Shown piece by piece: positions 42,301-45,300 of a stretch of DNA of 64,000 nucleotides. The DNA is from Escherichia coli. GTDB taxonomy: Bacteria; Pseudomonadota; Gammaproteobacteria; Enterobacterales; Enterobacteriaceae. The stretch lies in the NCBI RefSeq assembly GCF_041248615.1, contig NZ_CP158426.1; one strand, written 5' to 3'. Position numbers: made by a program. How positions within the stretch are numbered: position 1 is the stretch's first letter; each line of letters starts with the position of its first letter.

Positions 42301-45300
42301 GGGTGATATGAAAATGATCATCTGGTATCAATCTACTATATTTCTCCCTCCTGGCAGTATATTTAAACCGGTTAAATCTGGTATTATCTTTAAGGATAAA
42401 GAATACCCTATTACTATTTATAATATCGCACCATTCAACAAGGATTTATGGATTTTACTCAAAAGCAGTCAAGAGTGTCCTCCAGGAGAAAGCGAAATAA
42501 CAAATAAATGTTTACATAATAGTTGTATTATAAAAATATGCCCATATGGACTCAAGTAATGGGCTTCATATAAATATGCTCGACATGCTATTAATAATAT
42601 CCACATAAATAAAACAACGGGCGTGTTATACGCCCGTTTCATTATTTAACACATGTAGAGATTACATGTTCTTGATGATCGCATCACCAAACTCGCTACA
42701 TTTCAGCAATTTAGCGCCTTCCATCAGACGTTCGAAGTCATAGGTTACGGTCTTGGCGTTGATTGCGCCTTCCATACCTTTAACAATCAGGTCTGCGGCT
42801 TCAGTCCAGCCCATATGGCGCAGCAGTATATAAAAATTATGTATTCAACTCGCTGATATTTAATCATAAATATTATTTTCTTGTCTTTGTATTAGCCAAA
42901 ATCAACTTTATTCAACCGTTTGATTTCATTGACGTTCGTTTTTATTTTGGGGAAAGATTTTCTCTACCATTTATATCAAAATTACAAGTCTACATTTTAT
43001 TAACATCTCAATACATGTGTGGCCTTGCAAGCCATTGCGAGGCCTTATGTGTCTCAGTTTTGTCCCGCCTTGTATTACGACTTGCATAGCCAATGAAGAT
43101 AAACGTGACGACAAACAAAGCAGCTGTCTTCTTTTCTTTCACACTTTCCCCACTCAGCAGCATGCATACCTTCTACTATAACTGTAGTGAATGTCTATTA
43201 TGAGCGAACTGCGGACATCGTGGAGACAACATGCTGCTGGGTGCGGATATCCCATGGCACGTCATATCGCTCGCCGTATTACTTGTTATTTTTTTGAAAC
43301 GAGAAGTTGATACAATTCCTTCAGGGATAAGGCTAATAACTCATTCTTCCTGATGAGATCTTTATCAGCGTCTATACCCTCTGCGCATGATTCATTTAAA
43401 TAGTTCAGTGTTTCCTGATCATCATCCAAGCATTCATAGCTGCCTGAATAAAATTCATCGCAACTTGCTTTGTTATTTTTGTCAATGTAACCAATGCATT
43501 GAATCACGCCTTTAACAACTTTAGCAGCAGAAAAAACAAAGTAACTGCAGTCATTTATATAGCGTTCAATATCAAAAATCATATAAAAATAGTGCATAGA
43601 GTGTTTTTCAATTTCAAACTCACTTGAAATCATAGCTATTTCACATTCAAGGTCTTTCAGACCATCTAACATTATGGAAAGTTTACATTGTTTTTCTTGC
43701 ACAGTTTCATACTTAAATGACTCTCTCCCCTTTGCCCTGACATTTATTCTTTCTTCAATTGCATAAATATAAGCAGGATATACACGCGACCACACTTGGT
43801 TTATTTTTAGGATTAACCGGCCTCTTTTCAGCCTTTCTTTTGTAGCTATAAATTCTGCATATAGCGCAGCATCCTCTTCGCACCATACATCAACTTTTCG
43901 TTTATAACCCAACTTTAATTCTTTCCCTACGCATTCAGGAAACAAAGGATCAAAGTCCTTTAAGTATTCAAACTCACTTAGATAGAATCCTGTCTCATAA
44001 CGATTAAATAATTTCCTAAACTCTTTCCCACTTAAGGTTTTCATTGTATCAATCACTCTGTTTTCATAAAAGCAAAGTCAACAAGATAAAACAATAAAAA
44101 CTCTTACACAACCAGCTGATGTTTTTAAAATAGAGGATAATATAAGACAAGCATAACCTCGTTCACTTCAATGCTACTCCTATCGTTCTTTTGCGTCACA
44201 GAGCGCCTGCCGGACAACTGCATCATAGACCAAACGGAACTGCTTCCGTCGATTAATCAGATGGCAGCGCATAAACACGCTCAACAACCCGTTTGACTGC
44301 TTCAATTTTAAGCTCTTCGGAATAACGCTTACCGTGTAAGTCTCCCTGCAAAACGAGCTATCAACTTTTAAGGAGTCTCTGGCCCCCCTGCTTCCGCTCC
44401 TGGCACACAGCAGCCCTAGAGACAGTGGAGTAAAGTCATGGAGGCTCGGTGGGGAGAGGTGCAAATCCTCCCATACAAAAAATACGAAAATCAGTAACGG
44501 CTAGAAATCATTCAATACATGCACTCTCGAAATTGCATCAGCCAACCGCAAAACGTTATTTCAAAGCCTACTAGCTGCCTTACTTTTTTCCTCAATAACG
44601 CGTCGCCAGCCGGAAACAACCTAATCCCTGTTTTGGGCCTCAAAACCGCTAATGATAATCATTTTCATTTTGTATAGGTTGTGCTATAAAACATAGCCGT
44701 TGCTATGTTTGTTCTAATTTTGCTCACTATAGGTACTAAATTATGCACTCGATAAAAAAAGTAACCATGCTCTTGGGGGGCCTCGCACTCACCTGCTCGA
44801 TCGCATTTCAGGCAAGTGCAACTGAAAAATTCAAGGTCATTACAACATTTACCATCATCGCGGATATGGCCAAAAACGTGGCGGGAGATGCTGCAGAAGT
44901 CTCATCCATAACCAAGCCTGGTGCAGAAATTCATGAGTATCAGCCTACCCCTGGCGATATTAAACGTGCGCAGGGGGCACAACTGATTCTCGCCAATGGT
45001 ATGAATCTGGAATTGTGGTTCCAACGCTTTTACCAGCATCTCAATGGGGTTCCAGAAGTAATTGTCTCTTCGGGTGTGACGCCTGTAGGGATCACCGAAG
45101 GACCCTATGAGGGCAAACCTAACCCCCATGCATGGATGTCGCCAGATAATGCTCTGATTTACGTCGATAATATTCGTGATGCGTTGATAAAATACGATCC
45201 GGCAAATGCACAAACCTACCAACGCAATGCCGATACTTATAAAGCCAAGATTACCCAAACCCTTGCCCCCCTGCGTAAGCAGATTACGGAACTCCCTGAG

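Follow-up and report, generated by a model that had tools for sequence, protein, structure and literature searches.

Positions 44648–44710 of a 64,000-nucleotide stretch of Escherichia coli DNA (contig NZ_CP158426.1, hereafter the window) form, in our reading, the operator region of the metal importer operon sitABCD. The region is under the control of the metal-responsive regulators Fur and MntR, and it is intact because the IS1414 that disrupts sitD lies far downstream and is a recent acquisition specific to the strain. We put the probability of this reading at roughly 0.9. The operator assignment is carried by the matches to the binding consensus sequences, none of which recurs in the window, by the conservation of these sites across genera, by the identity of the DNA with that of uropathogenic E. 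coli CFT073, and by published Fur chromatin immunoprecipitation (ChIP) and fur-mutant data. That both Fur and MntR control the operon is well established, and the part of Fur has been shown experimentally on the identical sequence. A first-pass annotation of the window had already pointed to a Fur box and an MntR palindrome upstream of sitA, a finding that is accurate but ordinary and already known. To it we add a candidate second MntR box, a small refinement of the known control of sit.

The Fur box, GCTAATGATAATCATTTTC (44648–44666; strand is not applicable to it or to the MntR boxes below), agrees with the 19-bp consensus GATAATGATAATCATTATC at 17 of 19 positions, as had been claimed. It is the sole site within three mismatches in the 64-kb window, where shuffled sequences give an expectation of 0.01, and it lies at −95 to −77 relative to the sitA start codon (ATG, 44743). 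In CFT073, a peak at sitA in ChIP followed by sequencing (ChIP-seq; summit 526) lists as its motif exactly this 19-mer (PMC7157518 supplement). RNA sequencing (RNA-seq) of a CFT073 fur mutant found sitB, sitC and sitD up 19.7-fold, 16-fold and 8-fold, respectively (PMC7157518 supplement), and the two data sets together place sitABCD in the direct Fur regulon of that strain (PMC7157518). There is no RNA-seq value for sitA, since the original CFT073 annotation treats it (c1600) as a pseudogene (PMC7157518 Table S1); in the newer assembly, NZ_CP051263.1, CFT073 sitA is intact and identical to sitA of the window. A pan-regulon study by ChIP-exo likewise found sitABCD under Fur in two of three pathogenic strains.

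The stretch 43286–47862 is base-for-base the same in CFT073, and this includes the whole 686-bp region upstream of sitA. Fur occupancy in vivo and derepression in the absence of Fur are therefore on record for the very sequence of the window; the measurements are those of CFT073 rather than of the window strain, in which the same behavior would be expected from the identity of the DNA.

The MntR palindrome that the first-pass annotation called perfect is indeed so. This site, box 2 in what follows, has the 9-4-9 form AAACATAGC-CGTT-GCTATGTTT at 44689–44710 (core 44693–44706), with 0 mismatches, and is the sole match to the MntR consensus in the window even when up to three mismatches are allowed (0.03 expected). 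MntR is a repressor of the DtxR family, and the arms of box 2 are identical to those of its mntH operator in E. coli K-12, AAACATAGC-AAAG-GCTATGTTT. At −54 to −33 relative to the sitA ATG, box 2 stands with the Fur box where the two had been placed, about 35–95 bp upstream of the gene. The palindrome itself thus holds up; the count of a single MntR site does not, as the palindrome belongs to a conserved pair. A second MntR-type element, box 1, which had gone unreported, occupies 44674–44687 with the sequence ATAGG-TTGT-GCTAT, one mismatch away from ATAGC-N4-GCTAT, and ends 5 bp upstream of the core of box 2. When the two are searched for together as ATAGC-N4-GCTAT-N5-ATAGC-N4-GCTAT, the window has a single match, at 44674–44706 with one mismatch, where the chance expectation is 0.00. 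The paired cores are 5 bp apart, or 19 bp from centre to centre, which is the register of the K-12 mntS promoter.

For conservation of the region we drew on the 125 bp upstream of sitA in SitA loci fetched at one genome per species, a search that returned 80 loci. Besides three E. coli alleles and one Pantoea plasmid, the promoter comparison took in about 20 further species of Enterobacterales from 10 genera; the Salmonella sitA promoter is not among the 80 loci and so falls outside it. The 20-base tandem pattern is present with zero to two mismatches in all 23 Enterobacterales sitA upstream regions, whereas the best match among 3741 random 150-bp windows from the same loci has at least six mismatches. 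The recurring architecture, conserved in position, is a Fur-like box followed by two ATAGC-N4-GCTAT cores with a 5-bp gap. Across species the arms keep their sequence and the bases between them, in the 4-bp spacers as in the 5-bp linker, change; such a combination of conserved arms and free spacers is the footprint expected of a protein-binding site.

The Fur-like box (AATGATAATnATTTTCATTT) is not as widespread as the MntR pair. It lies 7–8 bp (2–10 in a few cases) upstream of box 1 in about 19 of the 23 promoters, is absent in Pantoea agglomerans and Erwinia persicina, and is unconvincing in Erwinia mallotivora and Pantoea sp. 1.19; the best match among the 23 is that of E. coli. Within E. 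coli, both chromosomal sit alleles combine a flawed box 1 with a perfect box 2 and a Fur box at 17/19; in the ColV-type plasmid allele it is box 2 that carries a mismatch (one), the core of box 1 being perfect, and the Fur box is weaker, at 15/19.

Of 5426 complete E. coli genomes, 2355 have a sit promoter, and the 63-mer 44648–44710 is found at 99% identity or more in 351 E. coli records. In one record, NZ_OZ547143.1, the 63-bp operator query finds its best match over bases 28–63 only, and at two places, which suggests an insertion or rearrangement inside the operator region there.

Metal control of the operon, as previously asserted, is thus documented for Fur in CFT073 on identical DNA, and repression by both regulators is established in relatives. 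Reviews citing Ikeda 2005 and Runyen-Janecky 2006 name both MntR and Fur as repressors of sitABCD in Salmonella and Shigella, and a 2022 study showed the two acting on a Salmonella sitA-lacZ fusion.

Could these boxes be nothing more than chance matches in AT-rich intergenic DNA, or could the ATAG and CTAT elements belong to an OxyR site? The operator region is AT-rich, and one review places an OxyR element in the Salmonella sit promoter. Against this stand the chance expectations for the Fur box (0.01), the MntR palindrome (0.03) and the tandem pattern (0.00), and the Fur ChIP-seq peak on the identical CFT073 sequence. The OxyR consensus ATAGnTnnnAnCTAT-N7-ATAGnTnnnAnCTAT has no match within three mismatches in the 64-kb window. 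We rejected the OxyR version on this ground and on that of spacing, the ATAG/CTAT elements being separated by 6, 5 and 6 bases where OxyR has 7, 7 and 7. Either explanation strikes us as highly improbable.

If the operators act by repression, they should cover a promoter, and a plausible one can be read from the sequence. A putative −35 element, TTTTCA (44662–44667, plus strand, 4/6), overlaps the right end of the Fur box and lies 17 bp upstream of TATAAA; the latter is part of a putative extended −10 element, TGcTATAAA (44682–44690, plus strand), which we propose by analogy with mntS and which overlaps the right arm of box 1. Transcription would then start at about 44696–44700, inside box 2 and about 7 nt downstream of the −10. 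Where the box 1 spacer of a species gives no TG, the −10 is usually a better one ending in T (TATGTT), and this fits the assignment of TGcTATAAA as the −10. Other promoters were considered, namely TATGTT or TAATTT further downstream and, if mntS is followed strictly, a −10 that precedes box 1. Their hexamers or spacing appeared poorer, a judgment made by eye that is not decisive.

Several points weigh against the region working as described. A consensus promoter scan did not call the TTTTCA/TATAAA hexamers because the −10 ends in A. No report of MntR binding to E. coli sit DNA was found in the literature covered. In the window allele box 1 carries a mismatch in its core, and its right arm could have been kept for a role as the −10 and not for repressor binding.

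The last of these points leads to a narrower account of the pair, in which box 2 alone is an MntR operator and box 1 is conserved as a −10 or extended −10. The right arm of box 1 and the linker do make a good extended −10; the core mismatch recurs in both chromosomal E. coli alleles, with two mismatches in Citrobacter, and a single MntR site suffices at mntH. However, the left arm of box 1, ATAGC, is part of no −10, yet it is exact in 19 of the 23 sequences while the adjacent 4-bp spacer varies, and the same two-core register in K-12 mntS has been described as paired MntR sites. We regard the narrower account as rather unlikely. Our own proposal, by analogy with such paired sites, is that two MntR operators stand in a fixed 19-bp register at sitA, conserved across Enterobacterales and shared with mntS, and that they might give cooperative, switch-like repression by manganese; we offer it as tentative. 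The exact −35, −10 and transcription start, the occupancy of both boxes by MntR and any cooperativity between them are what we infer from the arrangement of the sequence. No description of paired MntR boxes in sit was found in the literature covered, which did not include the primary sit papers.

A different kind of explanation would have the palindrome at 44689–44710 work in RNA, as the hairpin of an intrinsic terminator or of an attenuator within the sitA leader, and not as a DNA operator. A simple terminator scan does flag it, as a 9-bp stem followed by GTTCTAATTT. Only three pairs of that stem are G-C, the predicted folding of the leader is no stronger than that of shuffled sequences (z = +0.76), and across genera the arms retain the ATAGC and GCTAT sequences with no compensatory changes. 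Transcription probably starts within the palindrome itself, and the RNA would then lack part of the hairpin. There is no Rfam hit in 43000–47000 at E values up to 1, the manganese riboswitch (yybP-ykoY) included, and sit, according to a review, lacks a leader of the riboswitch type. On the strength of the arm conservation, the likely start site, the lack of an Rfam match and the unstructured leader we rejected the terminator, to which we give next to no credence.

Returning to the operator reading, the following mechanism can be proposed. Fe2+-Fur would bind the 19-bp Fur box and cover the likely −35 element TTTTCA, while Mn2+-MntR would bind the two adjacent inverted repeats, the slightly degenerate box 1 over the likely extended −10 and the perfect box 2 over the likely transcription start. 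Either repressor alone would block RNA polymerase, and the operon would be fully on only when iron and manganese are both scarce. Under metal limitation the promoter would drive sitA, sitB, sitC and the truncated sitD, with probable read-through into the co-oriented IS1414. Expression of sitABC under these conditions, which the first-pass annotation had foreseen, is accordingly the outcome one would expect of such a promoter, with the truncated sitD included.

The sit genes downstream of this promoter all lie on the plus strand. The periplasmic metal-binding protein SitA (44743–45657; 304 amino acids; Pfam ZnuA, 8.9e-86; RefSeq WP_000555630.1) is the same as in CFT073. It is followed, per the annotation, by the ATP-binding cassette (ABC) ATPase SitB (45657–46484; 275 amino acids; Pfam ABC_tran, 1.8e-30) and the permease SitC (46481–47338; 285 amino acids; Pfam ABC-3, 9e-83). 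The fourth gene, sitD, is disrupted, as had been reported; the element responsible is a 1315-bp IS1414 after codon 176. It matches CFT073 sitD for 528 bp, is then interrupted by IS1414, and resumes with the last 338 bp from 49178. What is left at the 5' end (47335–47886; a pseudogene in RefSeq) consists of 176 native codons (to 47862), seven codons encoded by the insertion sequence and a stop; the 338-bp 3' remnant occupies 49178–49515 according to the annotation and the comparison with CFT073. The truncated SitD keeps 176 of 285 residues, and its Pfam ABC-3 match covers profile positions 1–169 of 258. A four-gene Sit importer consists of a binding protein, an ATPase and two full-length ABC-3 permeases. 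With SitD cut, the window copy is an inactivated member of the SitABCD/YfeABCD-type importers.

The inserted element (47863–49177, plus strand) belongs to the IS256 family and is identified as IS1414 by its Mutator-type transposase (Pfam Transposase_mut, 2.7e-119), its imperfect terminal inverted repeats, the 8-bp target duplication GATGGCTG (direct repeats at 47855–47862 and 49178–49185) and the embedded astA. The transposase gene spans 47935–49143 on the plus strand, and within it, at 48650–48766 on the same strand, is an intact astA open reading frame of 38 codons for the heat-stable enterotoxin EAST1. There is no terminator-like site between the truncated sitD and the co-oriented transposase gene, which makes read-through into IS1414 plausible; in the window strain IS1414 and its embedded astA may in this way have come under the control of iron and manganese. 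Elsewhere in the window, at 7702–7809, a 110-bp stretch has 79% identity to the left end of IS1414 and is probably what remains of a related element of the IS256 family.

The insertion in sitD is carried by one of 5426 complete E. coli genomes, against the 2355 that have the sit promoter, and is on this account recent and strain-specific. It also lies 3.1 kb downstream of the promoter. Intact operators are therefore to be expected and say nothing about selection, which makes the earlier emphasis on operators intact although sitD is disrupted uninformative.

The further claim that the cell would make a partial transporter without SitD is unproven, and it is weakened by a second sit locus on the same chromosome. 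Over the whole of its length, a 6-kb query around the operators is 100% identical to the chromosome of E. coli NRZ14408 (NZ_LT599825.1); CFT073, Nissle 1917, ATCC 25922 and many other strains match at 100% except for the 1.3-kb insertion. Further queries carried 20 bp of the insertion-sequence junction to keep NZ_LT599825.1 top-ranked. In that record the 5' part of sitD was found at two places and the 3' part also at two, while a chimera of the promoter and the 5' part of sitD was found at four places, against two in other genomes. Second matches to the sitA promoter and 5' end and to both parts of sitD show that the NRZ14408 chromosome has a second sit locus, outside the window. It is absent from the window, from the plasmid p14408_1 and from the first 50 kb of p14408_2. 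NRZ14408 is not among the 18 genomes with a ydfJ-sitA junction, and a look-up of the exact SitA protein returned other contexts, none of them from NRZ14408. SitD, or a whole functional Sit system, may be supplied from this second locus, and a transporter without SitD may thus not describe the cell.

The RefSeq gene order around the operon runs from ycgZ-bluF-bluR-ycgX-ymgL-iraM through an icd remnant, a hypothetical gene, sitA, sitB, sitC, the 5' part of sitD, the IS1414 transposase gene and the 3' part of sitD to phage tail-fibre and tail-tip genes. As sit lies between the icd remnant and the phage genes, sitABCD is carried as cargo by a lambdoid prophage, at whose right end it stands; the prophage is integrated at icd, and its host is a CFT073-like E. 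coli. A tail-fibre neighbourhood adjoins sit in all ten contexts returned by the exact-protein look-up.

Most sit copies adjoin the icd remnant and ymgL, while ydfJ stands directly beside sit in the 18 of 5426 genomes mentioned above; other upstream contexts are DarT/DarG with an integrase, IS1 near minCDE, and acetyltransferases. Just 3' of sitD, on the minus strand at 49511–49609, is a partial match to Rfam IS009, a candidate E. coli intergenic small RNA, at 51.7 bits against a gathering score of 117 (E = 7.5e-10). NRZ14408 is a KPC-2 producer, and NZ_LT599826.1 and NZ_LT599827.1 are its plasmids. p14408_1 (137 kb) combines IncFII with an IncN-type transfer region and carries KPC-2, TEM-1, OXA-1, aac(6')-Ib-cr and colicin M remnants; the usual iron genes of ColV/ColBM plasmids, such as sit, are missing from it.

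For the window itself, the result has little weight beyond annotation: the copy of sitABCD in the icd prophage is a fresh pseudogene with a normal promoter controlled by Fur and MntR. The second locus illustrates how loss-of-function calls made from a single window can mislead on phenotype. The paired MntR boxes would offer a simple explanation for steep control of sit by manganese and would tie the sit and mntS promoters together. If the pair is real, the weakening of different boxes in the chromosomal and plasmid alleles could tune their sensitivity to manganese differently.

The closest known system is the CFT073 sitA Fur site, which is the same locus in a sister strain, identical at 43286–47862 and with the same ChIP 19-mer. 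Unlike CFT073, on which the Fur experiments were made, NRZ14408 carries IS1414 in sitD. In the sitABCD operon of Salmonella Typhimurium, for which reviews cite Ikeda et al. (2005, J Bacteriol 187:912), separate promoter sites serve repression by MntR, mainly with manganese, and by Fur, mainly with iron. This operon is located in Salmonella pathogenicity island 1 and not in a prophage, and the likeness is one at the level of the operon.

As a transporter, Sit differs from its single-permease relatives. Single-permease systems of the PsaBC and ZnuB type use permease homodimers. Sit has two diverged permease paralogs, SitC and SitD, which share 37% identity; SitD is homologous to both PsaC (3.6e-41) and ZnuB (2.2e-14), and structures of the relatives are available for PsaBC (PDB 7KYO/7KYP) and ZnuB (9OKO). 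A comparative study notes that such operons carry “one or two” permease paralogs (bioRxiv 10.1101/2023.06.02.543501).

At the level of the promoter, K-12 mntH has the same order of elements, a Fur box and then an MntR palindrome with the same arms, AAACATAGC and GCTATGTTT, just upstream of the gene; it has also been reported to have an OxyR site. It differs from sit in its single MntR site, its best match to the tandem pattern having seven mismatches. The adjacent MntR sites of the Bacillus subtilis mneP and mneS arrays are bound cooperatively (PMC11275975), as the putative sit pair might be. Those arrays, however, activate efflux genes through four weak sites, whereas the sit pair would repress an importer and includes one perfect palindrome.

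The nearest counterpart of the pair is K-12 mntS (rybA), which has ATAGC-N4-GCTAT, 5 bp and ATAGC-N4-GCTAT in the same register, with one mismatch. Its downstream box, ATAGCCTGTGCTAT, is the commonest box 1 sequence of sitA in other genera, its −10 element TATAAT is formed from the same arm and linker, and the annotated 5' end of RybA lies inside the downstream box. It differs in having no Fur box upstream and in its product, a 42-amino-acid protein. According to the structural work on B. subtilis MntR, the two sites paired at E. coli mntS are spaced as for cooperative binding (PMC11275975). A preprint has proposed that mntS descends from the signal peptide of sitA (bioRxiv 10.1101/2023.06.02.543501), and if sit and mntS do share paired MntR boxes, this descent would extend to the promoter itself.

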